DNA of 64,000 bases from the IMG/VR virus record IMGVR_UViG_3300046616_000431, positions 32,001-96,000 of that record; one strand, written 5' to 3'. The first letter of the stretch is position 1, and each line of letters opens with the position of its first letter. The notes under the pieces are model-generated. The model worked only from the letters and a program-made list of their open reading frames with translations, was not told the DNA's origin and did not search any database. The stretch comes from a virus. This document shows, one piece after another, positions 1,731 through 61,754 of this stretch. The position numbers were made by a program, and so were the translations under genes.

Positions 1731-1971
1731 TGCGTGCCCACGTGCCCCTAGGAGTGGGCGCCATTTCCCCGGCTACGGGTCTCTGGCCGCGCGGGCGGAC
1801 GGCCAGACCTCGTGAGCCCCTCACTCCTAAGGGAGTGAGGGGTCACTCGATGGCGCGCCTTTGGCTGGTCATCTCGGCGGGTGACATGTTCTCACCCTGA
1901 CACATTCTCAGCACGATGTGTAGTCGATCAGGTCAATTCCGTGTTCCCCCGAATGAATTCGGCCACGCCTG

Positions 1972-2006
1972 CTGTCCCTGTGTGGGTCGCTCACCATAGG
2001 GGGTGA
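1972..2006 (+). promoter_or_regulatory. Putative late promoter motif
   Basis: CTGTCC-N20-AGGGGGTGA. Confidence 0.6.
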
Positions 2007-2084
2007 GGGTTTGTGGTGGGCCCTCTTGCGGCTCCGTTCTCCGGCCGCCACTCGACCCCCGGACTCCCTTCCGGGGGTTGAGTG

Positions 2085-2119
2085 CTGTCTGGGTGCCTGT
2101 GGCCCCAGCAAAGGGTTGA
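2085..2119 (+). promoter_or_regulatory. Putative late promoter motif
   Basis: CTGTCT-N20-AAGGGTTGA upstream of the ATG at 2161. Confidence 0.6.
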
Positions 2120-33681: not shown

Positions 33682-34461
33682 GTGCGCGCGCACTTCAACC
33701 GCCCGCTGATCGACATGATGGGCAACCAGGTCAACCAGGCCGTGGTGCGGCTGCTGGTTGCGGGCAGCACCACGGAGCTGATCTCCGCCATCGTCTACTC
33801 CGAGGCAACCGGAAGCCTGACCCGCACCAACCCGTGGAACATCACCAACGGCGAGGTCGACTTCTTCCTGGACGCTCCGGCCCGGCTGCAGCTCGGGGTC
33901 AAGGTCGGCACCGACCCGGAGGAGTTCTGGGACAACGTCGATGTGCTGGCCGTGGCCACGGAGTCGACGCACCCGGGCACCGGCACGGACTCCACGGCGA
34001 TCGGCAACGGCGCGTCGGCGACCGGCGCCGGGGCCATGGCGCTCGGCGCGGGCACCCTGGCGGACGCCGACTCGGCAACCGTCATCGGCTACCAGGCGTC
34101 GGCAGCGCAGGCGGGCGCTACAGCCATCGGGGCGCAGGCGTCGGCCACGGAGCCCGGGGCGCTGGCGATAGGCCAGTCAGCGCTCGCCCAGGGGCTCCAG
34201 GCGGCAGCTCTGGGGGACGGAGCGCAGTCCTCCTGGGACCAGTCGACCGCCGTCGGCGCGGGCGCCCAGACGACCCGGCCGAACCAGGTCGTGCTCGGAA
34301 CGGCCGCCGACCTGGTCGACGTCCCGGGCGCGGCGGTCCTGCACAGCCCGGACGGGACGCCGTTCGTCCTGGCCGTCACCAACGACGGCCGCCTGTACAC
34401 GCAGCAGCTGGCGCCGTACGAGGCGGTCGAGCTGCCCGAGGGGCCGCCGGAAGTGCCGTGA
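33682..34461 (+). CDS. Tail fibre with YadA-head-like repeats
   Basis: 14-residue repeats STAIGNGASA, AMALGAGTLA, ATAIGAQASA. Confidence 0.7.
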   Translation: MRAHFNRPLIDMMGNQVNQAVVRLLVAGSTTELISAIVYSEATGSLTRTNPWNITNGEVDFFLDAPARLQLGVKVGTDPEEFWDNVDVLAVATESTHPGTGTDSTAIGNGASATGAGAMALGAGTLADADSATVIGYQASAAQAGATAIGAQASATEPGALAIGQSALAQGLQAAALGDGAQSSWDQSTAVGAGAQTTRPNQVVLGTAADLVDVPGAAVLHSPDGTPFVLAVTNDGRLYTQQLAPYEAVELPEGPPEVP

Positions 34462-41609: not shown

Positions 41610-43007
41610 TCAGGCGGCCTGGGCGAGCTGGTTCCTGCGGACCAACTCGTCGTAGCTGGGCTCCTCTTCGAGCCAGAGCAGCCTGCCGTCCGAGGCGATG
41701 ACCAGGTCGGAGATGATCTCGCCGGTCGCCGGGTCGATGACCTCGTTGCCCCACTGCCAGCGCTGGTCGACCTCGTCGCCACGGACGGGCGTCACGTCGG
41801 CCATACGGCGCTCCCGCAGGCGGGGGAGGGTGATCTCGTGCCAGATCAGCCGCTGGGCCTTGTGCAGCTCCAGGCGGCGCTGAGAGGTCCCCTCGGTGCC
41901 CACCTGGGCCGCCACCGCATCCCAGCCGTCCCAGGCCTCGGAGAGCGCCTCCTGGGCCGTCTCAGTGAGCGCCCAGAGGCTTCCGTCCCGGGTCACCAGG
42001 TCGTACTCAGCAAGGCGCTTCAGGTGGCGGTACGCGGTGGCGACGCTGAGCATGGCGCTCTCGGTCAGTTCGGCCGCCGTCTGCCTGTCGTTCCTGCTCA
42101 GGGCGGCCAGCAGCTTCAACGAGGAGGCGCCCAGACCCCGGTGGGCGAAGGCATCGAGGGACATCAGCCGAGAGATGACGGCACCGTCCAGGTCACCGTT
42201 TCTCAGGTTCGACACACTCGATTGCGCCCCCCCAGGCTGCGCCCCCATGGGGTTGTGTCGACGCTGAGAACGGTCTTCAAAAATCATCCACTGGGACCCC
42301 TTCTCACCCGAGCCGGACTCCATCAGCCGGACCCAGCCCTTGAGGCGCTGCGTGGTGGCGATGTAGGCGGTCCTGGCGGTGCACCCAGCGATCTCGGCGG
42401 CCTCGCGGTAGGAGAGCGTGTAGACGCGGCCCCCAGCGCGGTGGGCGGCCTTCCAGTGGGCCATCAGGACGCGGAGGTTGGTCGATCCGGCAGTGCCGCG
42501 CCAGGAGGCGCTGGTGATCCGGTCCCGCAGCTCGATGAGGTCGATGACGGCGTCCTGGCGGGAGCCGATGGCCACCCCGGACCCGACGCACTTGACCGCG
42601 CGCTGCCAGACCTTGTCGATGTACTTGTGGGCCGAGGGCATGCTCATGTTGCGGACGTGGTTGCCGCCGGTGGACGGCCAGTCGATGAGCGCCTCGGTGA
42701 ACTGGTCCCGGGTCCAGCGGTGCCGGACGGCAGCAGCAGCGACGGCTGCGGTGATCGCGTGGCCGTGCTTCGACTTCGCGGACTGGAGGCTGGAGGCGTC
42801 GGTCGAGCCGTAGCGGCTCTCGGTGTCGCCGTCGATCAACACGCCTGCCATACGCGGCGAGAGGGCCGGGAAGCGGTGCGACCAGTGGTTCGACTGCAGG
42901 TCACGCGGGGACGCGTCGCGCAAGGTCGCGGTTGCGGAAACGACACCGAGATTCAGGTCACTTTCGGCGTGCCGCACGGGCTGAGAGATACTAAAATGAG
43001 CAAGCAC
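41610..43007 (-). CDS. Putative plasmid-type replication initiator (helical bundle + two wHTH)
   Basis: LSYREAAEIAGCTARTAY and QTAAELTESAMLSVATAYRHLKRL wHTHs; internal IR element in the linker; flanked by long non-coding regions; start uncertain. Confidence 0.55.
   Translation of the reverse strand: MLAHFSISQPVRHAESDLNLGVVSATATLRDASPRDLQSNHWSHRFPALSPRMAGVLIDGDTESRYGSTDASSLQSAKSKHGHAITAAVAAAAVRHRWTRDQFTEALIDWPSTGGNHVRNMSMPSAHKYIDKVWQRAVKCVGSGVAIGSRQDAVIDLIELRDRITSASWRGTAGSTNLRVLMAHWKAAHRAGGRVYTLSYREAAEIAGCTARTAYIATTQRLKGWVRLMESGSGEKGSQWMIFEDRSQRRHNPMGAQPGGAQSSVSNLRNGDLDGAVISRLMSLDAFAHRGLGASSLKLLAALSRNDRQTAAELTESAMLSVATAYRHLKRLAEYDLVTRDGSLWALTETAQEALSEAWDGWDAVAAQVGTEGTSQRRLELHKAQRLIWHEITLPRLRERRMADVTPVRGDEVDQRWQWGNEVIDPATGEIISDLVIASDGRLLWLEEEPSYDELVRRNQLAQAA
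42200..42270 (-). repeat. Copy B of ~70-bp element, inside the rep-like CDS
   Basis: Encodes the interdomain linker SQRRHNPMGAQPGGAQSSVSNLR; inverted relative to copy A. Confidence 0.8.
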
Positions 43008-43290
43008 GGAGTGCTCGGCCCTTCTCTTTGGTCAGACGGAGAGGCCGGACCACCGTGAGGGCGATGGTCAGACCGCATAGGTCGCGTCGCCTGGCGGGAA
43101 CCCGTCCTGGCGGGTTGGGTTCCTTTTCCTGCTCGGCTTGCTTGGCGGCTTGACCGAGTGGATGAGACCTCCCAGGCGGAGGTCGAGCCTTACGTGAGGG
43201 GCGCGGGAACCTGTGGCGGGTTCCTAGCGCCCCTCCAGCTTTTCTACGTGCTGTCCATGATCGAAAGCTCCCTTGGCGGGGCCGGGCAGC
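43004..43290 (+). ncRNA. Candidate multi-hairpin countertranscript RNA with UGGCG loops
   Basis: GTGCCG-N17-TAAAAT promoter-like box at 42969-42997; five hairpins with GGC(G) loops; G-U pairs favour +. Confidence 0.45.
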
Positions 43291-43524
43291 GCGCTGACCG
43301 GCGAAGCGTGGTGGTGGGCCGAAGGTGGCGGGTACGGGCCCAGGGCACATTGAACATCATCAGACCCCGGTATGGGGAGTCAGGGTGCGATATAGCACTC
43401 CTGACGGCGTGTCGGCTGCCCGCCAGATCCGAACGACGAGTTCCGTGAGAACGCGGCCCTGCTTCGGTAGCGTGCGAAATCCGCCAAGATAACCCGCCAC
43501 GCGTTGCCTAGGGGCCCATCCGCC

Positions 43525-47003: not shown

Positions 47004-47893
47004 CCCGGCCGATACTCCTGGTGGACGGCAACAACCTGCTGATCCGCGCCGTCGAGGCCACCCGCCGGGTCGCCATGAACGCCCCCGACGGCACCGACAC
47101 CAGCGCGCTGGTCACCTTCACCTCGACCCTGTCCCGCTACACCCGGCAGATCCGGCCGTACAAGGTCACGGTCCTCTGGGACAGCACCAGCGCGCAGGTG
47201 CCGAACTGGCGCAAGAGCATCTACCCGCCGTACAAGGCCAACCGGCCCACCGCGCCTGATGCGTACGGGCGGAACTCCCGCGAGATGGTCACGACCTTCC
47301 TGCGGCTCGCCGGGATCCCTCAGCTCGGCGTCTGGGGCCAGGAGGCCGACGACCTGATCGGCTCGTACTGGCGCAGGCTCAACATGCCCATGACCATCCT
47401 GTCCAACGACAAGGATCTCCTGCAGCTCGTCGGCACGACCCCGCGCGGCGCCCAGTGCGACCAGATCCGAATATCCAGCGCCGACACCGCCACCGAGTAC
47501 TGGACGGCGGACCGAGTCGAGGAGCACTACGGCTGCACCCCCGAGCAGCTCCCGCTCGTCCTCGCGCTCTGGGGAGACTCCTCGGACAACATCCCCGGCG
47601 TCCCCGGCATCGGCGTGAAGTTCGCCGTCAAGCACCTCTCGGCCGCCGGATGGGACCTCGACAAGGTCGCCCACAAGGGCATCCAGGACCACCGCAAGGA
47701 AATCGCGGTGTACCACCAGCTCATCGACCTGCGCGGGCCTCAGTACAGCCTCGACGGCGTGCTCCCGGCCCCGCCGCCGTTCATGCCGACCTCGCCGGGC
47801 GCCGACAAGGCGTGGAAGGACCTGTACGCGTTCCTCTCCGGCTACGGAATGACACGGACGATCACGCGCCTGGCCAGCGGCGAACTCTGGTAG
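47000..47893 (+). CDS. 5'-3' exonuclease / flap endonuclease (Pol I N-terminal-like)
   Basis: LLVDGNNL, YKANR, EADDLIG, SNDKDLLQL, GDSSDNIPGVPGIG. Confidence 0.95.
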   Translation: MTRPILLVDGNNLLIRAVEATRRVAMNAPDGTDTSALVTFTSTLSRYTRQIRPYKVTVLWDSTSAQVPNWRKSIYPPYKANRPTAPDAYGRNSREMVTTFLRLAGIPQLGVWGQEADDLIGSYWRRLNMPMTILSNDKDLLQLVGTTPRGAQCDQIRISSADTATEYWTADRVEEHYGCTPEQLPLVLALWGDSSDNIPGVPGIGVKFAVKHLSAAGWDLDKVAHKGIQDHRKEIAVYHQLIDLRGPQYSLDGVLPAPPPFMPTSPGADKAWKDLYAFLSGYGMTRTITRLASGELW

Positions 47894-47902
47894 GCCAGTT
47901 TC

Positions 47903-47931
47903 TTGCCCCCGGCATGCAGCCGGGATAGCTT
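47903..47931 (+). promoter_or_regulatory. Housekeeping-sigma-like promoter with palindromic spacer
   Basis: TTGCCC-N17-TAGCTT; CCCGGC..GCCGGG in the spacer. Confidence 0.5.
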
Positions 47932-48019
47932 CAAGGTGCCTCCCCGCCAAGAGGCCGAATCCCACGGCAGACAGCACTGATTTGCCGTGCCCAGCCACCG
48001 CCAGGTTGGAGCTATCAAC

Positions 48020-48457
48020 TTGATCAACTTCGCCCCCGCCGCGCCGTACGGCAAGGCCGCTCAAACTGTCGCGAAGCCGAAGAGCGGCACTGTCCGGACA
48101 GTCGAGCCGACTTCCCCCGGCATCCAGTCCGCCATGACTCGCCCGCTGCCCGCCACGGCCGCCACGGACCTTCTGAGCAGCCCCACGGACTGGGACTGGC
48201 AGCAGCTGCGCGACTACGTGATGCGCTCCGTCGCCGAGCGCCACGGCCCGCAGCCCGCCATGGACCCGGTCAAGATCCGGTCCATCTTCCAGTCCTTCGC
48301 GCAGCGCTGGGGCAACCAGGCCGGGCCCATCGCCCGCTTCGCGTTCGAGGAGCAGGACGGCTTCTGGCGCAGCGCCCCGGTCACCCCCTTCAAGTTCGTC
48401 AAGAAGTGGGACCCGCACTTCGCGGGCCCGATCAGCGAGCGGCTGGCCGATGCCTGA
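48020..48457 (+). CDS. Hypothetical protein, upstream of helicase loader
   Basis: GGAG RBS + TTG 48020. Confidence 0.6.
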   Translation: MINFAPAAPYGKAAQTVAKPKSGTVRTVEPTSPGIQSAMTRPLPATAATDLLSSPTDWDWQQLRDYVMRSVAERHGPQPAMDPVKIRSIFQSFAQRWGNQAGPIARFAFEEQDGFWRSAPVTPFKFVKKWDPHFAGPISERLADA

Positions 48458-48722
48458 GCCCGCCTGCTGCCCCAACTCCTACGTCCGCCCCATCGACGGC
48501 GGCCTGGAGATCGAGGACGGCTCCGAACGCTGCTGCGGCCCCGAAGGCCACGTTCTCCTGAACGTGGAGGAGTGGCACGACGCCATGTACCGCTGGGAGC
48601 AAGAGCTGCTCGACGAGCACATCCGCGCGGTGCTGCCGCCCGGGACCAAGCTGCCGGTCGTCGTGGACGTCCCAGTGATGATTCCAGTCCAGTCCGAATA
48701 CATCACCATCAAGTTCGCCTGA
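48450..48722 (+). CDS. Hypothetical protein
   Basis: Overlapping start; codon bias. Confidence 0.5.
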   Translation: MPEPACCPNSYVRPIDGGLEIEDGSERCCGPEGHVLLNVEEWHDAMYRWEQELLDEHIRAVLPPGTKLPVVVDVPVMIPVQSEYITIKFA

Positions 48723-48769
48723 TCCACCCTGCCCGGCCGCCAACGGGCCCTCATCAAGGACCGCCAACC

Positions 48770-49606
48770 TTGAAACCGCCACCCAAGCCTGACGCCTGCA
48801 TGCCGCTGTCCAACCCGGACTTCGAGCGCCTGAAGGCCACCTACCCGAAGCTCTGGGTCGATCCGAAGCGCGAGTGCAAGACCTGCCTGAAGCAGAACGG
48901 CAACACCTACCGCTGGTGGGCCGACAGCACCCGCACCGAGATCGCCACCTACGAGTGCGACTGCACCGCCCAGTGGCTGATGCACCTCTGGTTCCTCAAC
49001 GCGGGCATCGGCCTCAACTACCAGCGGCTCACCTGGGACGACGTCTCCGCCGTGGGCCCGGACATCGTTGCGCAGATCGGCGACTACGCCCTGAACGCGG
49101 CCCGCCGCGTCTCCGACGGCCGCAACCTCGTCCTGTGGTCGACCGGCCCCGGCACCGGCAAGACGCTGCTGCTCACGCTGCTGCTCAAGACGCTCATGGT
49201 GCAGGGCTACCAGGTCCACTTCAGCCAGTTCAACGAGATCATCGACCTCTTCACCAACTCCTGGCGCGACAAGGCCGAGCGCGAGCAGTGGACCCGCCGC
49301 GTACGCAACGTCGACGCCCTCGGCATGGACGACATGGGCAAGGAGCACAAGGGCCGCCTGGAGATGGTCGAGGCCATGGTCGACCAGATCGTCCGCGCCC
49401 GCGTCTCCGACTCCCGGCCCATGGCCATCACCTCCAACTTCACCCCCCAGCAGATGCAGGAGGGGTACGGCGGCTACGTCATGAGCCTGCTCAGCGAGCA
49501 GGCCGACTTCATCGAGGTCACCGGTAGCGACTTCCGGCCCCGCCGCCGCGAACTGACCGCCCAGGAGGCCGCCCTCGGCCTCGCCCGACCGATTGCAGCG
49601 GTGTGA
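48770..49606 (+). CDS. DnaC/IstB-like helicase loader
   Basis: CKTC...CDC Zn motif; GPGTGKT; MDDMGKE; ITSN; AAGGA RBS + TTG. Confidence 0.88.
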   Translation: MKPPPKPDACMPLSNPDFERLKATYPKLWVDPKRECKTCLKQNGNTYRWWADSTRTEIATYECDCTAQWLMHLWFLNAGIGLNYQRLTWDDVSAVGPDIVAQIGDYALNAARRVSDGRNLVLWSTGPGTGKTLLLTLLLKTLMVQGYQVHFSQFNEIIDLFTNSWRDKAEREQWTRRVRNVDALGMDDMGKEHKGRLEMVEAMVDQIVRARVSDSRPMAITSNFTPQQMQEGYGGYVMSLLSEQADFIEVTGSDFRPRRRELTAQEAALGLARPIAAV

Positions 49607-50211
49607 CCATGTCGAACGATGATTTTTACAGGACTTCCGCGATCCTGCGGGGCGAGACCCTTCACAAGGTAGGCCCGGCGGCCCCCGTGGTGAACGCGGT
49701 CGGGAACGGAGTGTGGACCCATAACCCCACCCCTGCGCCGGTCGCCATGCCGCGCTCCTTCAGCCACGCCGCTGCCGGTGTGGACGAGCAGGTCAAGCAC
49801 GGCAGAGCAAAGCTGGACGCCCTGCGCAACCAGCTGAAGTCGTTCTCGGACCAGCTCATCGACATGGACATCGCGGTCGCCCGGATGACCAACAGTCTCC
49901 ACGGGCCAGGCAGCGAACTCGCTGACGCCAACGAGAAGATCGAGCGCCTGGAAGCGCGCGTCGCGGCTCTGATCAAGGAAGCCCAGCGCCAGAAGAGGCG
50001 CGCAGAGCGCGCCGAGATCCAGCAGCCCGACATCGAGAAGAGCAAGCCCGGCGAGGTCGCCTTCCTGCGCCGCACGCCCGGCGACGCCATCCGGTACTTC
50101 GCCACCGAGGTCATGAAGCACGGTGAGCTCGACATCAATGCCGAGCTGATGGGCGCCGCCATGGGCCTGCGCATGGTCGCCGACGAAGTGGATCGGCTGC
50201 CGCAGGGATGA
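49603..50211 (+). CDS. Hypothetical coiled-coil protein
   Basis: GTGA overlap; heptad-rich centre. Confidence 0.55.
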   Translation: MTMSNDDFYRTSAILRGETLHKVGPAAPVVNAVGNGVWTHNPTPAPVAMPRSFSHAAAGVDEQVKHGRAKLDALRNQLKSFSDQLIDMDIAVARMTNSLHGPGSELADANEKIERLEARVAALIKEAQRQKRRAERAEIQQPDIEKSKPGEVAFLRRTPGDAIRYFATEVMKHGELDINAELMGAAMGLRMVADEVDRLPQG

Positions 50212-51512
50212 GCACACACGCTGAGGCCACCCTGTACGCCTCGCTGACCGACGTGGACGCGCTGGAGCAGCTGGCCGACACCGGCCTGGCGCCCGAGTGC
50301 ATACCGATGGAGGGCATGCGCGACGTCGTCGCCTATGCCGTCGAGTACTTCCACCGCTCCGGCCGGACCAAGGCCCCCTCCCGTGAGCTGCTCATGGAGC
50401 AGTGGGGCAAGCGGCTGGAGCAGTGCCAGGTCACGCTGCCCGAAGCAGACGTACAGGTCGACGAGGTCTGGGCCGCGATCGAGTACCTGCGCTCCCAGTA
50501 CGTCCTCGCCGAGTCTCAGCGAGTCCAGCGGGACATCGCCGTCGAGATCGCCCAGGCCGAGGCCCACGAGCGCGTGGAGGCCATCCACAAGGCCGCCGCG
50601 TTGTTCCATCACCTGTCCATGTCGGTCCGGGACCGCTCGGCCGAGGTCGAGGGCATCACCGGCCTGCGGGCCTCGCTGGCCCGCTACGACCAGCGTGCCG
50701 CCGCCCCGAAGGTCATCACCGGCATGTCGCTCGGGATCCTCGCGGTGGACGAACACTGCCTCGGCATCCACGACGGCGAGATCTGCACCTGGGCCGCCCC
50801 GCCCAAGGGCGCCAAGTCCTGGACGTCCACCCACGTCGCCCACACCGAGTGGAAGCGCGACCGGGTCGTCGTCCTCTACACGCTGGAGAACAGCGTGCAG
50901 ATGTCGTACGACCGGCTGGCCTGCCAGATCTGCTGCGTCGACTACCGCGAGTACCAGAAGGGCACCTGCAGCCCCGAGGAGGTCGACCGCGTCCGCGAGT
51001 GGCTCGACACCAACGAGGCCGACCTGAAGGACGGGCTGCACATCCTGTCCCCGGACGCAGGCCGCCGCACCCCGGCCGCCCTGGTCCGCCAGGCCCAGTC
51101 CTACGGCGCGAAGTCGATCATCATCGACCAGCTGAGCCACATCGAGCACCCCAGCCCCGACCCGCGCCGGGCGCAGCACCAGAAGATCGCCGAAATCATG
51201 GCCGAGCTGTCCACGATCATCACCACCGGCCACCAGCAGCTGCCGATCTTCCTGAACGCCCAGATCAACCGCGAGGGCGTGGCCGCCGCCAGCAAGGCCG
51301 GACGGCTGGAGCTGCAGCACCTCGCCGAGTCGGCCGCCATCGAGCGGTACAGCAGCTGGGTGTTCGGCCTCCTCCGCTCGGAGACCGAGATCGCCGCCGG
51401 TATGGCGACCCTGCAGATGCTCGCCTCCCGCCGCATGGACCTCAAGAACTGGCGGATGGCCTGGGAGCCCTGGTACGGCACCCAGCACTCCCTCGGCGAG
51501 GTGACCCTGTGA
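50208..51512 (+). CDS. DnaB-like replicative helicase
   Basis: AAPPKGAKS Walker A variant, YTLE, IIIDQL, AQINR, LAESAAIER. Confidence 0.88.
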   Translation: MSTHAEATLYASLTDVDALEQLADTGLAPECIPMEGMRDVVAYAVEYFHRSGRTKAPSRELLMEQWGKRLEQCQVTLPEADVQVDEVWAAIEYLRSQYVLAESQRVQRDIAVEIAQAEAHERVEAIHKAAALFHHLSMSVRDRSAEVEGITGLRASLARYDQRAAAPKVITGMSLGILAVDEHCLGIHDGEICTWAAPPKGAKSWTSTHVAHTEWKRDRVVVLYTLENSVQMSYDRLACQICCVDYREYQKGTCSPEEVDRVREWLDTNEADLKDGLHILSPDAGRRTPAALVRQAQSYGAKSIIIDQLSHIEHPSPDPRRAQHQKIAEIMAELSTIITTGHQQLPIFLNAQINREGVAAASKAGRLELQHLAESAAIERYSSWVFGLLRSETEIAAGMATLQMLASRRMDLKNWRMAWEPWYGTQHSLGEVTL

Positions 51513-51766
51513 CCGCCCCGATCATCCACGAGCTGATGACGACGATTTACGTCACCGGCGACGAGATCTTCCCCATCGAGGAGTTCACGAGAAACGACCT
51601 CGTCCGGCGGTTCCTCCAAGACGCCCCCTGCCTGGAAGGGCGCGAGGAGGCGGTCATGGTCACCTCGGAACCCCTGGTCACCCTTCCACAAGCGCAGTTC
51701 TACAGCGCGAGGGCCCTCTGCCCCACCCCCGACACCTGCTCACTCCCGAGAAAGGCGGACCGGTGA
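51509..51766 (+). CDS. Hypothetical protein
   Basis: GTGA overlaps on both sides. Confidence 0.5.
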   Translation: MTAPIIHELMTTIYVTGDEIFPIEEFTRNDLVRRFLQDAPCLEGREEAVMVTSEPLVTLPQAQFYSARALCPTPDTCSLPRKADR

Positions 51767-52425
51767 CTTTCCTCCCTTGCACCACCGCACCGGCCCTGTT
51801 CGACAGCATGGGCGGCCCTGACGACCCAGCTGTGATCGAGGCGAAGGCCCTCTGCAAGACCTGCCCGATGATCTTCATGTGCCGCCAGCAGGGCCGTGAC
51901 GGCCAGGAGTGGGGAGTCTGGGGCGGCGAGAGCCACATCGAGAGGAACCGGCTCATCGCGCGGGCGGAGGAGGAAACGGTCGAGTGCGGCACCTACCGCG
52001 CCCTGCAGATGCACCGCCTCCTCGGCGAGAAGTGCGAGGTCTGCCAGGAGGCCCGCCGCGAGCGTGAACGGGCCTACGACGCCAAGCGCCGTGAGGGCAA
52101 GAAGCTCGTCAAGGTCAAGAAGCCGATAGGCGGGTTCCGAGAGAAATCCCCCTGCCCCTCGTACGGCGCCTACAAGCGGCACATCAAGCGCAAGGAAGAC
52201 CCGGGCCCGTGCGGCTGCCGCGAGGCGTACCGCATCGCCCGGAAGGCCGAGCGTGACGCCCAGCCGAAGAAGGAGCGGGACCACACGCCCTGCCCCTCCT
52301 CGGCGGGCTACCGGCGGCACCAGCGCAGAGGTGAGGCCGGGATCGAGTGCGGCTGCCGGGAGGCGAGCCGGAAGGCCAACAGCAAGAGCGAGAAGGCCAA
52401 GCGCAAGGCAGGGGCTGTCGCATGA
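51763..52425 (+). CDS. whiB: WhiB-family transcription factor with repeated Cys/His C-terminal motifs
   Basis: C...AKALCKTCP...C...GVWGG; three 'Y..H...E..C..CREA' repeats. Confidence 0.85.
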   Translation: MTFLPCTTAPALFDSMGGPDDPAVIEAKALCKTCPMIFMCRQQGRDGQEWGVWGGESHIERNRLIARAEEETVECGTYRALQMHRLLGEKCEVCQEARRERERAYDAKRREGKKLVKVKKPIGGFREKSPCPSYGAYKRHIKRKEDPGPCGCREAYRIARKAERDAQPKKERDHTPCPSSAGYRRHQRRGEAGIECGCREASRKANSKSEKAKRKAGAVA

Positions 52426-52712
52426 GCGACCGGTCCTGGCTCTGGGCCTTCGGCGGCGAGCCGGACGGCCGCTGCCCCAAGTGCCTGATCACGCCAGTCA
52501 TGACCGAGTACCACGACGCCGTCGTGGTCGGCATGTGCAAGGAGAAGCGTGACGTCGCCCTGGCGCTGGCTGAATACCCGGAGCACGTCCCTGACGAGGC
52601 CACCGAGCACCTCTGCCGGGGGTGCCCCGTGTGCAGCTTCACCTGGAGCGAGCGCGTGGCCACCGCAGAGGACATGAAGCGGGCCCAGGGGCTGGTCAGC
52701 AGTGACAACTGA
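52422..52712 (+). CDS. Hypothetical Zn-binding protein
   Basis: CPKC...CPVC; ATGA overlap. Confidence 0.55.
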   Translation: MSDRSWLWAFGGEPDGRCPKCLITPVMTEYHDAVVVGMCKEKRDVALALAEYPEHVPDEATEHLCRGCPVCSFTWSERVATAEDMKRAQGLVSSDN

Positions 52713-53802
52713 CCTTGACCAGCTGACCGCCCTGCCCGAGGCCCACAAGGCGAAGCTGGCCCGTGACGCCCTGGCCTCCATCGGCATTGACGTCAAGCGC
52801 GAGCAGGGCGACGAGCTGATCATCGCCTGCCCGATCGGCGGCTACCACAAGGACCAGGACCGCAACCCCACCGGCGCCCTGAACGCCTCCAAACTGCTCT
52901 ACAACTGCCTCGGCTGCCAGGCCAGGGGAACTCTCCTGTGGCTGATCGCCACAGTGCGCGGCGACGACGACATCGAGCAGGCCCGCCAGTGGCTCTCCGG
53001 CGAGGCCGGGCTCACCCGGGCCATGGAACTCCCGGCCCTCCTCGACCTGTTCGACTCGCTCTACACCGAGAAGACCCGGGCGCCCATGCCGGTCTACAGC
53101 CCGCGCATGCTGGAGCGCTGGGAGGGCGTCCCCGACTACATCGTCGGCGAGCGTGGCATCCCGATCGAGACGTGCGAGCGGATGGGCATCTGCACCGACC
53201 CTGACGGCTTCATGGGGCCGCCGGAGAACCGCGTACGGACCGGCCCCCGGGCCGTCATCCCGCACTACTGGCAGGGCGAGCTTGTCGGCTGGCAGTCCCG
53301 CCGCCTGCCCAATGCCGATCCGACAGCCCCGAAGTACCTCTCGACCCCGTCCTTCCCCCGCGACGAGACCGTCTACAACGACCTCCCGTACGAGGACGAC
53401 CTGGTGGTCGTCGAGTCACCCATGAGCAGCCTGCGACACCGGCACCACTCGCCGATCTCCGCGACATTCGGCAACGAGGTCACCGACCTGCAGCTCCGCT
53501 ACCTCGCCCGGAACCGCCGGAAGTTGACCTGGTGGATGGACAACGACGAGGCCGGATGGCGCGCGGTCGAGGGCTACCAGCGTGAGGGGAGCCGCTTCCG
53601 TGCGCCCGGCGCACCACAGCGGGCCTCAGCCTTCTGCGACAACTGGGTCGTCCGGAGCCCCTTCGCGGCCGACCCGGCCGACCTGTCCGACGAGGTCTAC
53701 GACATCGTCCTCGAATCAGCCGTGCCCTGGCAGGTCTGGACCCGGCCGGAGAAGCTGTTCTGCCACCGCTGCCTCAACGTCGCCCACCGGGGCGGGTGCT
53801 GA
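52702..53802 (+). CDS. DNA primase (Zn-binding + TOPRIM)
   Basis: CP...H.D..P...YNCLGC; LVGWQSR..PKYL; VVVES; MDNDEAG. Confidence 0.88.
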   Translation: MTTDLDQLTALPEAHKAKLARDALASIGIDVKREQGDELIIACPIGGYHKDQDRNPTGALNASKLLYNCLGCQARGTLLWLIATVRGDDDIEQARQWLSGEAGLTRAMELPALLDLFDSLYTEKTRAPMPVYSPRMLERWEGVPDYIVGERGIPIETCERMGICTDPDGFMGPPENRVRTGPRAVIPHYWQGELVGWQSRRLPNADPTAPKYLSTPSFPRDETVYNDLPYEDDLVVVESPMSSLRHRHHSPISATFGNEVTDLQLRYLARNRRKLTWWMDNDEAGWRAVEGYQREGSRFRAPGAPQRASAFCDNWVVRSPFAADPADLSDEVYDIVLESAVPWQVWTRPEKLFCHRCLNVAHRGGC

Positions 53803-54254
53803 TGCGGCACGAGACCTTCCACCTCGGGCCCGATACCCACGTCAAGGACGGCGAGAACTGGATGGCCGACCACCGCGTGGACTGGGGGCCGCCCGTTCCG
53901 TTCAGGCCCGATGAAACCGTGACTCGGTTCGGTATCTACGCCTCCGACGGCACGATCGAAGCGATCGGCCCCGGCAAGATGAAGTTCCTGGGCCAGCAAC
54001 CCCTCTGCGTTGTTGAGGTCGGCGACACGCTGTGCTGGGACGGCACTCGTGTCCGGCTGCACCGCTCGCCCCGTCAAGGGGTGCAGACCTGTCGACGGAG
54101 GAGATTCAGCATGCTGAAGAAGCACGGCACCGGAACCCTGATCACGGACGACACCGAGGAAGGTCGTATCGTCCGTACGGCCGTCGCGCTCACCGAGGCG
54201 CAGCGTGCTGGCATCCTCGACGAGGGTGAAGAGACGGACACCGAGGGGGAGTAG
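53802..54254 (+). CDS. Hypothetical protein
   Basis: TGATG overlap. Confidence 0.5.
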   Translation: MRHETFHLGPDTHVKDGENWMADHRVDWGPPVPFRPDETVTRFGIYASDGTIEAIGPGKMKFLGQQPLCVVEVGDTLCWDGTRVRLHRSPRQGVQTCRRRRFSMLKKHGTGTLITDDTEEGRIVRTAVALTEAQRAGILDEGEETDTEGE

Positions 54255-54256
54255 GC

Positions 54257-55009
54257 GTGGCCGACCAGCCGCCTCTCCAGCTCGTCGGCCGCCCGGACAC
54301 CGCCATCGTGTCCACGAGTACCGCTCTGGTGCCCGTACGGGCGGCCGTGGTGTGTCACGACGTCAACGGCTACTACCGGGCCCTCGGCGTGGCGCCGGAC
54401 GCCACCAGGCGCGAGCTGCTGGCCGCCTACACCGCCCGCAACGGGCAGGGCGACGCCCGGCTCACGTACGTCTTCCACCAGCTCCTGAACGCCGACACAC
54501 GGGCCCGCTACGACGCCTCGCCCCTCGGCCAGCCCTTCCAGGACCGGTACGTACACGCCGAACTCCTGCGCCGCGCCAGCCTGTTCGCCTCCGCACAGAA
54601 CGCTCTCCACGGCACCCAGAACACGGCTGCCGACATTCTTAAATCTCACGGACTGGGGTCCGAAGAACCGAAGAACGAATTTCTTGATTCCACCTCCCCA
54701 GGACGCTTTAGTGATGACGGGAAGAGGGACCGCCAACCCTCTCCCAGCTCCCCGGCCACCCGGCCGTACTCCTACCTGCTCCTGGCCTCCACCTGCGACG
54801 ACGTGTCGCGGATGGACCAGTGGAGGGAAGGACTCGGCAGGGCCCTGGCGGCCCGGAACTGCCCGCGATTCGCGGTCGGATTCCACGGCATTCCAGGACA
54901 GCCGTTCTTCGTGGCGAAAGACCTCGGGACCCCCGTGTTCTTTCTCCACGAAGACCAGCCCGTGACGGGGGAGTTGATCGCGGCAGCCGCCACTGCCGCA
55001 GTCGGATAA
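54257..55009 (+). CDS. J-domain-like protein lacking HPD
   Basis: YYRALGVAPDAT..EL..AY ... LLNADTRARYD. Confidence 0.7.
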   Translation: MADQPPLQLVGRPDTAIVSTSTALVPVRAAVVCHDVNGYYRALGVAPDATRRELLAAYTARNGQGDARLTYVFHQLLNADTRARYDASPLGQPFQDRYVHAELLRRASLFASAQNALHGTQNTAADILKSHGLGSEEPKNEFLDSTSPGRFSDDGKRDRQPSPSSPATRPYSYLLLASTCDDVSRMDQWREGLGRALAARNCPRFAVGFHGIPGQPFFVAKDLGTPVFFLHEDQPVTGELIAAAATAAVG

Positions 55010-55045
55010 CCGACATCACCCGCCATCAGAACATCAGGAGCATTC

Positions 55046-56026
55046 GTGACCGCCAACACGAGCCCCGTCGTAGCCTTCCGCAAGGGCGGCAGCGCCGCCG
55101 AAGAGGCCGAGAAGGAGTCCAACGCCAGCGGCGGTCGCCGCGACAAGTCCCCGGACTACTTCTCCCTCAAGGAAGACCAGGCCTCCACCGTCATCCGTCT
55201 CCTGACGGACCACGACGACTGGATCTACGTCGAGCAGCACTCGTTTGTGCCGACCAAGGCCGCCCCCAAGGGTGTCGAGAAGTGGCCCAAGGCCATGACC
55301 TCCGTCTGCCGCAAGGACCCGGCCTTCGATGGCCACTACGGGGACTGCTACATCTGCGACAACAAGGTCAAGAACTCCTTCGGGAAGGTCGCCTCCTCCC
55401 GCATCCGCGTCTGGGCCCTGGCGGTCGAGCGCGAGCTGGTGCGCGGCGACGGCAGCGAGGCCCTCGGCGGCCCCGCGAAGAAGGGCGTCGTCATCGGCGT
55501 CCGGGACAAGGTCGACGAGGTCGACGAGCTGAACGCCGAGGGCAAGACCACCGGCAACAAGCTGAACTACCCGCGCCTCCTGGTGATCAACCAGCCCATG
55601 AAGGGCTTCTTCGCCAATCTCAAGGCGCTGCACGGCCTCTACGGCACCGTCTGTGACCGGGACTTCTCGATCACCCGCGACGGCACGGGCACGGACACGA
55701 ACTACAAGATCGTGCCCATCGACCCGATCCCCGACCTCAAGCCCGGCACCCCGGCCTGGGAGCTGTACACCCAGTCCGTCGCCGAGCGCCAGGTCGTCCT
55801 CGGCTCGATCGTCGCCGAGAAGGCCAGCGACGAGTACTACGGCCGCTTCTTTGACCCCTCCAAGGAAGTCGACAAGGACGGCAACGTCACCGACGTTGCA
55901 GCGGCGGCCACCGGCGCCGTCGCCGTGGGAGGCGTGATGAACCTCCCGAGTGCCACCGCGACTGACGCGGGCCTCTCGGCCGACATGCGAGACAAGATCC
56001 GCAACCTCGGCGCTCCGACCGGCTGA
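55046..56026 (+). CDS. Putative single-stranded DNA-binding protein (gp32-like)
   Basis: YFSLK...IRLL..H...C....CYIC; RDFSITRDGTGTDTNY; adjacent to polymerase. Confidence 0.65.
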   Translation: MTANTSPVVAFRKGGSAAEEAEKESNASGGRRDKSPDYFSLKEDQASTVIRLLTDHDDWIYVEQHSFVPTKAAPKGVEKWPKAMTSVCRKDPAFDGHYGDCYICDNKVKNSFGKVASSRIRVWALAVERELVRGDGSEALGGPAKKGVVIGVRDKVDEVDELNAEGKTTGNKLNYPRLLVINQPMKGFFANLKALHGLYGTVCDRDFSITRDGTGTDTNYKIVPIDPIPDLKPGTPAWELYTQSVAERQVVLGSIVAEKASDEYYGRFFDPSKEVDKDGNVTDVAAAATGAVAVGGVMNLPSATATDAGLSADMRDKIRNLGAPTG

Positions 56027-61687: not shown

Positions 61688-61754
61688 CACCTGCAGCACC
61701 ACCGGCCGACCGCCAACGGCCGCGTACCGCCTCCTACCGCCAGGGAGACCCCTC

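Follow-up and report, generated by a model that had tools for sequence, protein, structure and literature searches.

Control of translation by loop-loop pairing is known from CopA/CopT of plasmid R1, Inc RNA/repZ of ColIb-P9 and RNAIII-rot of Staphylococcus aureus, in which message loops at or near the ribosome binding site (RBS) are complementary to loops of a regulator RNA. The leader of a helicase loader gene, found in a window of 64,000 nucleotides from a large actinophage, has the same layout as far as its sequence goes, and its two hairpins could match the RNAIII-rot pair, where two target hairpins make two loop-loop contacts. It differs in that 9-19 units (17-40 hairpins) share one loop word in a single phage, and in that the candidate partner would act mostly in trans and through only 6-7 bases.

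Protein-read hairpins offer further likenesses. The MS2/PP7 coat operator is also a weak hairpin with the start codon in it, where loop-specific recognition leads to occlusion, but it occurs once per genome in RNA phages and is read by a coat protein, whereas many units are present here. The boxB element of lambda nut, bound by N, combines a free-sequence stem of about 5 bp with a fixed loop that is read in trans. It has a purine-rich, GNRA-like loop of 5 nt, occurs roughly once in each early operon and takes no part of its structure from an RBS, in contrast to the loops of 6-9 nt over RBSs described below. In T4, the initiation regions of some 30 early mRNAs are targets of repression by RegA, and the operator loops of gp43 differ among phage lineages (PMC3014915). 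The resemblance to RegA lies in the many early and replication messages of a large lytic phage controlled at initiation regions, and that to gp43 in a hairpin whose loop sets specificity and varies by lineage. RegA sites, however, are unstructured, AU-rich and lie over the AUG, while those seen here are GC-rich hairpins with a common loop word, and gp43 acts on its own message only as opposed to many. A homologue of RegA (PF01818) was not detected in five genomes of the lineage.

Among actinophages, the SAS and ESAS repeats of Cluster K likewise keep to one orientation and mark the starts of some non-structural genes; the consensus varies among sublineages and the function is putative (PMC3203893, PMC12699233). 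SAS is a fixed 13-bp word that includes the Shine-Dalgarno sequence (SD), whereas here the stems vary and the loop is fixed. ESAS consists of conserved 17-bp inverted repeats around a variable spacer, the reverse of the variable arms and invariant loop in this phage. No match to the SAS word GGGATAGGAGCCC with up to two mismatches occurred in the window, Rfam models matched nowhere in the window at gathering score, nor in 47850-48900 at E<=1, and no paper describing a CCGCCA hairpin family was found in the literature.

The loader leader and its two hairpins

The loader gene follows a gene for a Cys-rich protein and is itself followed by a dense run of genes (positions in the window):

48450-48722, plus strand: gene for a 90-aa Cys-rich protein (open reading frame list and GC3 gene call)
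48731-48748, plus strand: hairpin 1, GCCCG/gccgccaa/CGGGC (direct reading and fold)
48754-48773, plus strand: hairpin 2, TCAAGG/accgccaa/CCTTGA (direct reading and fold)
48756-48760, plus strand: loader SD, AAGGA, 9 nt 5' of the TTG and kept among relatives
48770-49606, plus strand: DnaC/IstB-like helicase loader (Pfam IstB_IS21; tblastn matches an annotated DnaC-like helicase loader)
49603-55009, plus strand: eight further genes, overlapping by 4-11 nt, with a 2-nt gap at the last junction (open reading frame coordinates)
50208-51512, plus strand: DnaB-like helicase (Pfam)
51763-52425, plus strand: WhiB-like gene (Pfam)
52702-53802, plus strand: primase (Pfam)

Direct reading and folding confirmed the tandem CCGCCAA-loop hairpins that a preliminary description had placed at 48731-48773, and the pairing of AAGG with TTG in the second stem could be followed base by base. 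The 5' arm of hairpin 2 is the SD and its 3' arm the TTG start: A48756, A48757, G48758 and G48759 of the SD pair with T48771, T48770, C48769 and C48768, and G48772 of the TTG (48770-48772) pairs with C48755, so that SD and start codon pair mutually. On its own, 48727-48778 folded into precisely this pair of hairpins (-16.9 kcal/mol, 83% of the ensemble, z -2.2), with -10.2 kcal/mol for hairpin 1 in a 22-nt context (48729-48750) and -6.7 kcal/mol (z -5.3) for hairpin 2 by itself. In a 96-nt context the stability was not above that of shuffles (z +0.5), and the element is therefore not singled out by stability alone; the above-chance status of the loader hairpins comes from the CCGCCA hairpin family and not from stability. 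The TGA stop of the Cys-rich gene lies 8 nt upstream of hairpin 1. Terminator-like sites (GC-rich stem plus T-run) were absent from 47800-49000, and the hairpins are followed by C/A-rich sequence.

The relatives share 64-69% protein identity, and 10 of 11 have both hairpins and the TTG in frame. Hairpin 1 reads GCCCGG/ccgcca/CCGGGC in these relatives, kept in 10 of 11 with a G-U-compatible C-to-T change in one, and hairpin 2 is invariant in 10 of 11 save for a loop length of 7 or 8 nt. The 43-nt element is nearly invariant, linker included, and the flanks on both sides diverge; because the stems never vary at the loader locus, it shows no covariation when taken alone. The spacer between the TTG and a conserved PLSN motif measures 33 or 36 nt in the relatives, multiples of three only. 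An alternative start that had been put at ATG 48799 actually lies at 48800-48802 and is missing from relatives. Judged from this conservation (TTG in frame in 10 of 11, indels by threes, ATG not conserved), TTG 48770 is the true loader start, as had been proposed at first. Nine genes that overlap or abut, the loader first, make up a block at 48770-55009, within which the helicase and primase genes previously noted downstream are indeed found; translational coupling of the block to the loader start is therefore plausible.

A family of hairpins with one loop word

The genome to which the window belongs (G000, a 112-kb actinophage record) was compared with a relative (G002) and a divergent relative (G004). 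CCGCCA was the 6-mer most enriched in hairpin loops among about 2,200 tested in G000 and also ranked first in G002. Loops held 26 of 165 plus-strand copies in G000 (p 1.6e-6) and 48 of 240 in G002 (p 2e-14), compared with 2 of 75 minus-strand copies in G000. When all 35 unselected plus-strand CCGCCAA sites were taken together over five flanking positions, 61.7% of cells were paired versus 41.3 +/- 3.3% in shuffles (0/500), and 28-48% when the positions were slid. The family amounts to at least 9 units in this genome and about 19 in a complete relative. In G000 the units stand at nine gene starts, eight of them in tandem, and include the loader, SSB, RecA-like and RuvC-like genes. Those in the window beside the loader, together with a further hairpin of the same type, are:

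47938-48009, plus strand: unit of a 145-aa gene (TTG 48020), GCCTC/cccgccaa/GAGGC and CCAGCC/accgcca/GGTTGG
54723-54742, plus strand: family-type hairpin AGAGGG/accgccaa/CCCTCT within the open reading frame 54257-55009
54980-55062, plus strand: SSB unit, GCGGCAG/ccgcca/CTGCCGC and TTCGTG/accgccaa/CACGAG
61703-61747, plus strand: RecA-like unit, CGGCCG/accgccaa/CGGCCG and CTCCT/accgcca/GGGAG

In 8 of 9 units of G000 and 14 of 18 of G002, the SD, the start codon or both fall within the gene-proximal hairpin. For the 145-aa gene, the 3' arm of the second hairpin extends into the SD, and the start context is kept in relatives. The SSB gene (55046-56026, PHROGs) has its GTG start within the 5' arm of its second hairpin, and the SD of the RecA-like gene (ATG 61755, Pfam RecA) is the 3' arm of CTCCT/accgcca/GGGAG. 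Stems are mostly 5-6 bp, and the gene-proximal hairpins have energies of -4.4 to -9.7 kcal/mol. Units are confined to non-structural regions, and the word tracks gene orientation, minus-strand genes included. Certain intergenic CCGCCA copies are not in hairpins, and coding DNA holds about 9 CCGCCA-loop hairpins, which equals the background rate. In a scan of the collection with CTCCTACCGCCARGGAG, the family appeared only in this lineage, apart from single matches in six unrelated contigs; a scan with CAGACCGNANAGGTCG returned unrelated contigs only.

Paralogous units have stems unrelated in sequence around the fixed loop word. Orthologous stems change on both arms, as in GCAGAC/GTCTGC to ACAGAT/GTCTGT and CACTG/CAGTG to CGCTG/CAGCG; the RecA-like stem covaries in relatives as CGGCCG, CAGCTG and AGCTGA..TCAGCT, and the hairpin at 54723-54742 is retained with altered stems. 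Conservation and enrichment together indicate that the loader hairpins are real, conserved members of a phage-wide set of CCGCCA-loop hairpins over RBSs. As the hairpins share one loop word and cover the RBSs of early and replication genes, the set looks like an undescribed, shared translation switch of these genes. The preliminary description had envisaged that translation of the replisome is gated by whatever binds the loop. With this number of units the element is not specific to the replisome. A loop that stays fixed while stems vary argues for a trans-acting reader, and coupling within the loader block is plausible.

In G004 the loop word is CTGCCA instead of CCGCCA. The orthologue of the SSB-start hairpin there is GCGTG/actgccaa/CACGC, and a synonymous change from ACC to ACT at SSB codon 2 accompanies the switch, in a genome with a gene-strand GC3 of about 0.9 (judged from local stretches). 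Loop enrichment of the new word (22 of 77) is partly inflated by antisense-strand G-U pairs and by a repeated leader, CCAACC-CTGCCAAG; when the sense strand alone is considered, stems of 5 bp or more are present at about 10 of the 77 copies. This switch bears on the idea that the hairpins are purely cis-acting leader elements, which would set a fixed low initiation rate, shield genes from ribosomes arriving from upstream, or act in mRNA protection or processing (5'-end stabilisers, nuclease sites), with no dedicated reader. Weak SD-masking stems can tune translation unaided, hairpin 1 of the loader begins just past the upstream stop codon, and several units have a TAnnnT hexamer 6-9 nt before the first hairpin, which would place that hairpin at the 5' end of the transcript. 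Such an explanation nevertheless appears improbable, as it accounts neither for an invariant loop word on unrelated stems nor for the concerted one-base switch of the word in a sister lineage, which the synonymous change in SSB follows.

The same -10-like hexamers, present just upstream of some units, would fit transcription-level signals of the nut/boxB or put type that load an antitermination factor on each early or middle operon. Short hairpins with fixed loop and variable stem and the many transcription units of a genome of about 155 kb also agree with this. Hairpins built from SD or start codon, as in most units of both genomes, would however be needless for such sites, nothing promoter-like precedes the loader, RecA-like and RuvC-like units, the C-rich loop of 7-8 nt is not a GNRA-like pentaloop, and no terminators follow the units. 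Antitermination is thus quite improbable.

A DNA-level element, be it a protein-binding site, a hairpin promoter or a single-strand signal for replication or priming, could explain why the entire 43-nt loader element is conserved with its linker, and the wobble count cannot separate RNA from DNA (17 G-U versus 16 A-C). It is nonetheless highly improbable, because the word flips with gene orientation, unlike a replication signal, and the stems are tied to SD and start codon. Extrusion from duplex DNA is also poor for stems of 5-6 bp that carry 8-nt loops. Hairpin promoters of the N4 type, which a single-subunit RNA polymerase of the phage reads, have a 3-nt loop, as opposed to 7-8 nt here. Profiles for T7-type RNA polymerase and sigma-70 region 2 had no match in five lineage genomes, the polymerase profile (PF00940) being silent on the control genomes too; four of the largest proteins are depolymerase, hydrolase or polyvalent proteins.

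Candidate readers of the loop

The complement of the loop word, UGGCGG, occurs in hairpins on the main coding strand at three conserved non-coding loci, two of which lie in the window:

1868-1885, plus strand: post-capsid hairpin GTCAT/ctcggcgg/GTGAC, located in a non-coding gap downstream of the capsid gene and of an inserted nuclease gene
43092-43331, either strand: array of six TGGCGG on plus, equal to six CCGCCA on minus, between a wHTH gene and a helicase gene

Because of these loci, loop-loop pairing with phage RNAs is the leading candidate for how the loops are read. That the CCGCCA hairpins are RNA operators which pair with phage UGGCGG RNAs is a possibility that we hold tentatively, at somewhat less than even confidence. 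That the hairpins act in RNA and are bound by a factor is an inference, and so is any statement of which way the effect goes or what the reader is. Duplexes predicted between loops had -10 to -12.5 kcal/mol when the pair was cognate; the mismatched pair of a G000-type target with a G004-type partner had -7.4 kcal/mol. As in the kissing systems, target loops are complementary in sequence to the partner loops, and the target hairpin overlaps the RBS or start, as hairpin 2 does at the loader.

The three loci differ in what they offer. The post-capsid loop reads cttggcgg in G002 and G003, the exact complement of CCGCCAAG; in G000 it reads CGGCGG, which leaves just 5 complementary bases. The third locus, a gap at positions 106223-106415 of G000, has a fixed loop TCT(T)GGCGGG on a variable hairpin stem inside an enclosing helix that covaries. 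RNAalifold gave -48.0 and -50.9 kcal/mol for its two strands, which is uninformative on the strand, and in the plus-strand consensus TGGCGG is partly paired to an upstream CCG-containing segment and so may not be displayed in a loop. The array is flanked by the wHTH gene on the minus strand (41610-42977) and the helicase gene on the plus strand, and contains a plus-strand TAnnnT conserved in position in four genomes. It recalls plasmid countertranscripts, as it would lie opposite the leader of a replication-type (wHTH) gene. The array could equally well be a candidate partner RNA or the sense CCGCCA leader of the wHTH gene, whose G004 orthologue has CTGCCA in the sense of the gene. By symmetry every complementary locus is also a sense CCGCCA hairpin on the opposite strand, and energetics and wobble pairs leave the folded strand undecided, one hairpin favouring minus in G000 and plus in G001. 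For two of the three partner loci, G004 has no homologue that can be recognised.

This strand ambiguity leaves room for a protein reader, that is, a phage or host RNA-binding protein, possibly a dimer across the tandem loops, which would either lock the hairpins late in infection and repress the early and replication genes (like RegA, MS2 coat protein or gp43) or open them (like Com of Mu). Protein operators classically combine a constant single-stranded loop word with short stems of arbitrary sequence. The tandem arrangement suits a dimer, the targets are replication and recombination genes, and T4 offers precedents in RegA with its roughly 30 early mRNAs and in the lineage-dependent gp43 operator loops (PMC3014915). 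Still, a protein reader, which ranks second among the explanations, is rather unlikely, as no candidate emerged from searches and the exact loop complement in conserved non-coding hairpins would be left unexplained. Profiles of RegA, CsrA, Phage_Hfq, CSD, S1, KH_1 and ProQ had no match in five lineage genomes, and among about 45 proteins of this phage scanned against Pfam and PHROG, none showed an RNA-binding domain. The 90-aa Cys-rich protein, which matched neither Pfam nor PHROG and has orthologues among relatives, was weighed as a Com-like activator; it is absent from G004. More generally, genes present in G000 and G002 but not in G004 were dropped as reader candidates, because G004 has its own loop word.

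As for cellular RNAs, we know of no convincing complement of the loop in 16S rRNA or tRNA, and tRNA/tmRNA scans, which covered two relatives as well as the window and the remainder of its genome, yielded one minus-strand tRNA-Ile prediction (G002). In Gordonia phage Stormageddon, the closest cultured relative by its loader, the replication region had no enriched loop 6-mer. A Phage_Hfq gene is located near the loader of that phage.

Under loop-loop pairing with phage RNAs, hairpin 2 would hold AAGGA against the TTG by only about -6 kcal/mol, little enough for a ribosome to open it and enough for a bound partner to lock it. Both loader hairpins would display the word CCGCCA(A), and the units whose loops are read by a trans factor would number about 9 in this record and about 19 in a complete relative. 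The loader, SSB, RecA-like and RuvC-like genes and several small early genes might thereby be co-regulated, with the eight genes behind the loader following by translational coupling. The most likely reader would be one or more phage RNAs with UGGCGG in hairpin loops, pairing loop to loop; two tandem target loops would permit two contacts, and pairing would stabilise or cover the masked start and turn translation off. Extended to the lineage, this may amount to a phage-wide RNA-versus-RNA code for the early and replication class, in which word and complement co-evolve (CCGCCA/UGGCGG versus CUGCCA/UGGCAG), a proposal whose chances are again a little below even.

A tag on early and replication messages

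To our knowledge, T4 is the only case in which control of entire gene classes after transcription has been worked out well, and there it rests on proteins and loosely defined sites. An uncultured lineage of large actinophages appears to give its messages for early functions and replication a tag at the RBS, which consists of a constant loop on stems that are free to vary. If one reader serves all tags, this would be a simple timing switch for the replisome and recombination genes. It would also carry a built-in specificity code that is one base apart between sister lineages, which makes the idea directly testable by loop swaps, and it could provide a compact, orthogonal translation switch for high-GC hosts. 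The SAS/ESAS repeats of Cluster K mycobacteriophages may perhaps find a worked parallel here.

Tandem hairpins at the helicase-loader start

Two tandem hairpins precede the DnaC/IstB-like helicase-loader gene, and direct reading of the sequence places them exactly where the preliminary description had put them:

48731-48748, plus strand: hairpin 1, GCCCG/gccgccaa/CGGGC, starting 8 nt past the TGA that ends the preceding 90-aa gene
48754-48773, plus strand: hairpin 2, TCAAGG/accgccaa/CCTTGA

In hairpin 2, the AAGG of the AAGGA Shine-Dalgarno sequence (SD, 48756-48760) is paired with CC-TTG, the TTG being 48770-48772. The RNA fold of 48727-48778 consists of hairpins 1 and 2 and nothing else (-16.9 kcal/mol, 83% of the ensemble, z -2.2), and hairpin 2 folded alone gives z -5.3; the 96-nt context is not more stable than shuffles. 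A terminator reading of the hairpins was rejected because no T-run follows them, and no promoter-like or terminator-like site was found in 47800-49000.

The same description had proposed TTG 48770 as the loader start and an ATG at 48799, actually located at 48800, as the alternative. Comparison with eleven related loci from IMG/VR (loader 64-69% identical) upholds the former. AAGGA, TTG and both hairpins are kept in 10 of the 11; 33 or 36 nt separate TTG from a conserved Pro-Leu-Ser/Ala motif, in frame and stop-free in all cases, and the ATG is absent or out of frame. Relatives differ in the length of the hairpin 2 loop (7 or 8 nt), which shifts the frame 5' of TTG, so no coding sequence lies upstream of it. 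On these comparative grounds (in-frame spacing, non-conserved ATG and frame shifts), the start is TTG 48770. The 43-nt element is near-invariant, in contrast to its flanks: the end of the preceding gene and the opening ten codons of the loader diverge freely. One relative carries a C-to-T substitution in hairpin 1 that still pairs, as G-U. The eleventh relative (locus L009 of G004, the most divergent genome) has no intergenic region, and its loader, whose N terminus retains the Pro-rich extension and its conserved Ala-Cys, begins at an ATGA overlap that couples it to the gene before it.

The source record (112,362 bp, 68% G+C, about 72% complete by IMG/VR (CheckV)) has its closest deposited relatives, Gordonia myophages and Cluster C mycobacteriophages, at only 30-34% protein identity. 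Downstream of the loader, eight genes, including a DnaB-like helicase and a primase, abut or overlap (overlaps of 4-11 nt; one 2-nt gap) and end at 55009; their ribosomes may be supplied via the loader start. The ORF at 54257-55009 contains a J-domain-like segment (YYRALGV..), with a DnaJ-like chaperonin-annotated gene in the equivalent position of Gordonia phage Stormageddon, and a family-type hairpin within its coding sequence (54723-54742) is kept in relatives. Directly 5' of the loader hairpins, 48450-48722 encodes the small Cys-rich 90-aa protein (CC..C..C..CC in most relatives), which is found in the CCGCCA lineage and missing from G004. In the 145-aa protein of 48020-48457, which matches nothing in Pfam or PHROG, the C-terminal 100 aa or so form a well conserved domain (DW.W..LRDYV..ER...F..RW...A..IA.FA.E..DG.WR). 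Its gene is flanked by those for the 5'-3' exonuclease and the loader, a position often occupied by phage replisome organisers.

A family of CCGCCA-loop hairpins at gene starts

Six hairpins in the window, all on the plus strand, have the 8-nt loop NCCGCCAA in common, while their Watson-Crick stems of 5-6 bp are unrelated in sequence. In the whole record, CCGCCA lies in loops of hairpins of at least 5 bp for 26 of 165 plus-strand copies versus 2 of 75 on the minus strand; in G002, a relative with a complete genome, the same strand comparison gives 48/240 versus 9/118. When all 6-mers were scanned without bias (about 2,200-2,450 words tested), CCGCCA came first for hairpin-loop position in both genomes (p 1.6e-6 and 2e-14, respectively), and nothing comparable was found in the Stormageddon replication region. 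When all 35 plus-strand CCGCCAA sites were taken without selection for pairing, the five flanking positions paired in 61.7% of cells versus 41.3 +/- 3.3% in shuffles (0/500) and 28-48% when slid, with a covariation score of 0.50 versus 0.21. Coding DNA holds about 9 of the 26 loop hairpins, which is the background rate, and the excess of about 17 is intergenic.

Such units stand at nine gene starts in the record, eight of them as tandem pairs.

Units at gene starts: hairpins; start codon; gene (genome coordinates; subtract 32,000 for window coordinates)
2848 + 2888; ATG 2914; small early gene
3183 (single hairpin); ATG 3195; 168-aa gene
79938 + 79991; TTG 80020; 145-aa gene
80731 + 80754; TTG 80770; helicase loader
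86980 + 87043; GTG 87046; SSB
93703 + 93731; ATG 93755; RecA-like
98421 + 98445; ATG 98468; RuvC-like
100050 + 100085; ATG 100125; unnamed gene
101449 + 101474; ATG 101505; 334-aa gene

The SD, the start codon or both fall within the gene-proximal hairpin in 8 of 9 units here and in 14 of 18 in G002, in three registers: anti-SD, loop, SD (e.g. CTCCT-accgcca-GGGAG, then 7 nt, then ATG); SD, loop, start codon (loader unit and unit 3183); and a 5' arm holding the start codon (SSB). Predicted stability of these hairpins is uniformly weak (-4.4 to -9.7 kcal/mol). Stems made of ribosome-binding sites would be left unexplained if the units were nut-like or put-like signals. Units are confined to non-structural regions and the word follows gene orientation, with CCGCCA on the minus strand directly 5' of the SD of minus-strand genes, a flipping that signals acting at the DNA level would not explain. 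Several units have a TAnnnT hexamer 6-9 nt upstream of the first hairpin, so that the transcript would begin with that hairpin; the loader, RecA-like and RuvC-like units are without it and look operon-internal.

Between orthologous hairpins the loop is constant and the stem is altered on both sides. The RecA-like stem is CGGCCG in this phage, CAGCTG in G002 and AGCTGA..TCAGCT in other relatives; further pairs are GCAGAC/GTCTGC versus ACAGAT/GTCTGT, GACGTG/CACGTC versus GGCGCG/CGCGTC, and CACTG/CAGTG versus CGCTG/CAGCG. In G004, CCGCCA hairpins are nearly absent and CTGCCA occurs at the same kinds of sites, such as the SSB start (GCGTG-actgccaa-CACGC) and a position preceding an ATG (CCCTT-acctgcca-AAGGG). 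At SSB codon 2 the switch turns ACC into the synonymous ACT, with G or C at about 90% of gene-strand third codon positions in G004 (judged from local stretches); this suggests selection on the word itself, as RNA or DNA. Purely cis-acting tuning or stabilising elements would leave both the constant loop and the lineage switch unexplained.

The G004 loop enrichment (22/77) counts antisense-strand G-U pairs, and some of its instances come from a repeated leader, CCAACC-CTGCCAAG, present several times; when the sense strand alone is considered, stems reach 5 bp or more in about 10 of 77 CTGCCA copies. This leader, ..tgtca-CCAAC(G)CC-CTGCCAAG-N4-GGAG-N6-8-ATG, stands upstream of several small early genes in G004 (loci L024-L031) (e.g. 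reverse-strand positions 71328, 73532, 78318 and 79273); its common word exceeds the loop length and sense-strand hairpin pairing is poor.

Protein or RNA as the presumed reader of the loop

A constant loop on free stems, together with the concerted switch of word, calls for a trans-acting reader. Domains of the RegA, CsrA, phage Hfq, cold-shock, S1, KH and ProQ types are absent from five genomes examined in this lineage, and a scan of about 45 proteins found no RNA-binding domain. Stormageddon, the closest cultured relative by loader, encodes a Phage_Hfq protein (gp68, PF23874; L048:15457-15810) two genes upstream of its loader; Phage_Hfq is absent from the lineage studied here. The complement of the loop occurs on the main coding strand in three conserved non-coding loci:

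Locus 1, window 43092-43331, plus strand: array of six TGGCGG
Locus 2, G000 (own record) 106223-106415 (L047:10223-10415), outside the window: structured element between plus-strand genes
Locus 3, window 1868-1885: gap after the capsid gene, hairpin GTCAT-ctcggcgg-GTGAC

Locus 1 has three TGGCGG in G001 and G002, two plus one TGGCAG in G003, and four TGGCAG on the equivalent strand of G004; in four genomes a TAnnnT hexamer lies at a constant distance from GTGC[CG]G. At locus 2 the hairpin loop TCT(T)GGCGGG is constant on a varying stem (GGGTCTA/TAAACCC, GGTGG/CCACT, GGGT/ACCC), within a covarying enclosing helix (GTCTCRYG/CRYGAGAC). The conserved element (about 190-240 nt) also has an outer helix, a GACCG..GGTC hairpin and a GC-rich terminal hairpin, and matched none of the Rfam families searched. 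Orthologues of locus 3 read GTCAT-cttggcgg-GTGAC (G002, G003) and GTCGT-ctggcggg-GTGAC (G001). Close by, the gap that follows the capsid and nuclease genes holds a roughly 95-nt block (window 1995-2095; G000 33995-34095) which is near-invariant in four genomes, contains CCGCCA and ends in a strong GC hairpin. The word CAGACCG-N-A-N-AGGTCG, a GACC/GGTC inverted repeat, lies upstream of the TGGCGG hairpins in the wHTH-gene leader as well as in the 106-kb element (window 43065-43080, L047:10283-10298, G002 81699-81714) and may serve a DNA-binding protein as its operator.

Predicted loop-loop duplexes reach -10 to -12.5 kcal/mol. The opposite strand of each locus is itself a sense CCGCCA hairpin, and energies, wobble pairs and RNAalifold do not discriminate between the strands. 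At locus 1 the opposite strand forms the leader of a minus-strand wHTH gene, whose G004 orthologue has CTGCCA in that sense. Plus-strand genes flank loci 2 and 3, where no minus-strand gene could be served, and for this reason a phage RNA is tentatively preferred as the reader, at somewhat less than even chances; a protein reader seems rather unlikely.

The mechanism would most resemble protein operators (MS2 coat, T4 gp43) or kissing-loop antisense control, as in R1 CopA/CopT and in S. aureus RNAIII, which engages two hairpins of rot mRNA. The T4 RegA regulon, with about 30 early mRNAs bound at their initiation regions (PMC3014915), is similar in scope, but RegA is absent here. The nearest actinophage likeness is to the Cluster K start-associated sequences, whose function is still untested (PMC3203893, PMC12699233); these have fixed arms and a variable spacer, the reverse of the CCGCCA units, and their word has no match in the window. 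The units lack a boxB-type loop of the lambda kind and have no Rfam match (whole window; loader locus), and belong to none of these classes. Gating of translation by whatever binds the loop, as first proposed, is still the best available reading, but its restriction to the replisome was too narrow: a whole gene class carries the units, and control by loop reading would extend to all of it.
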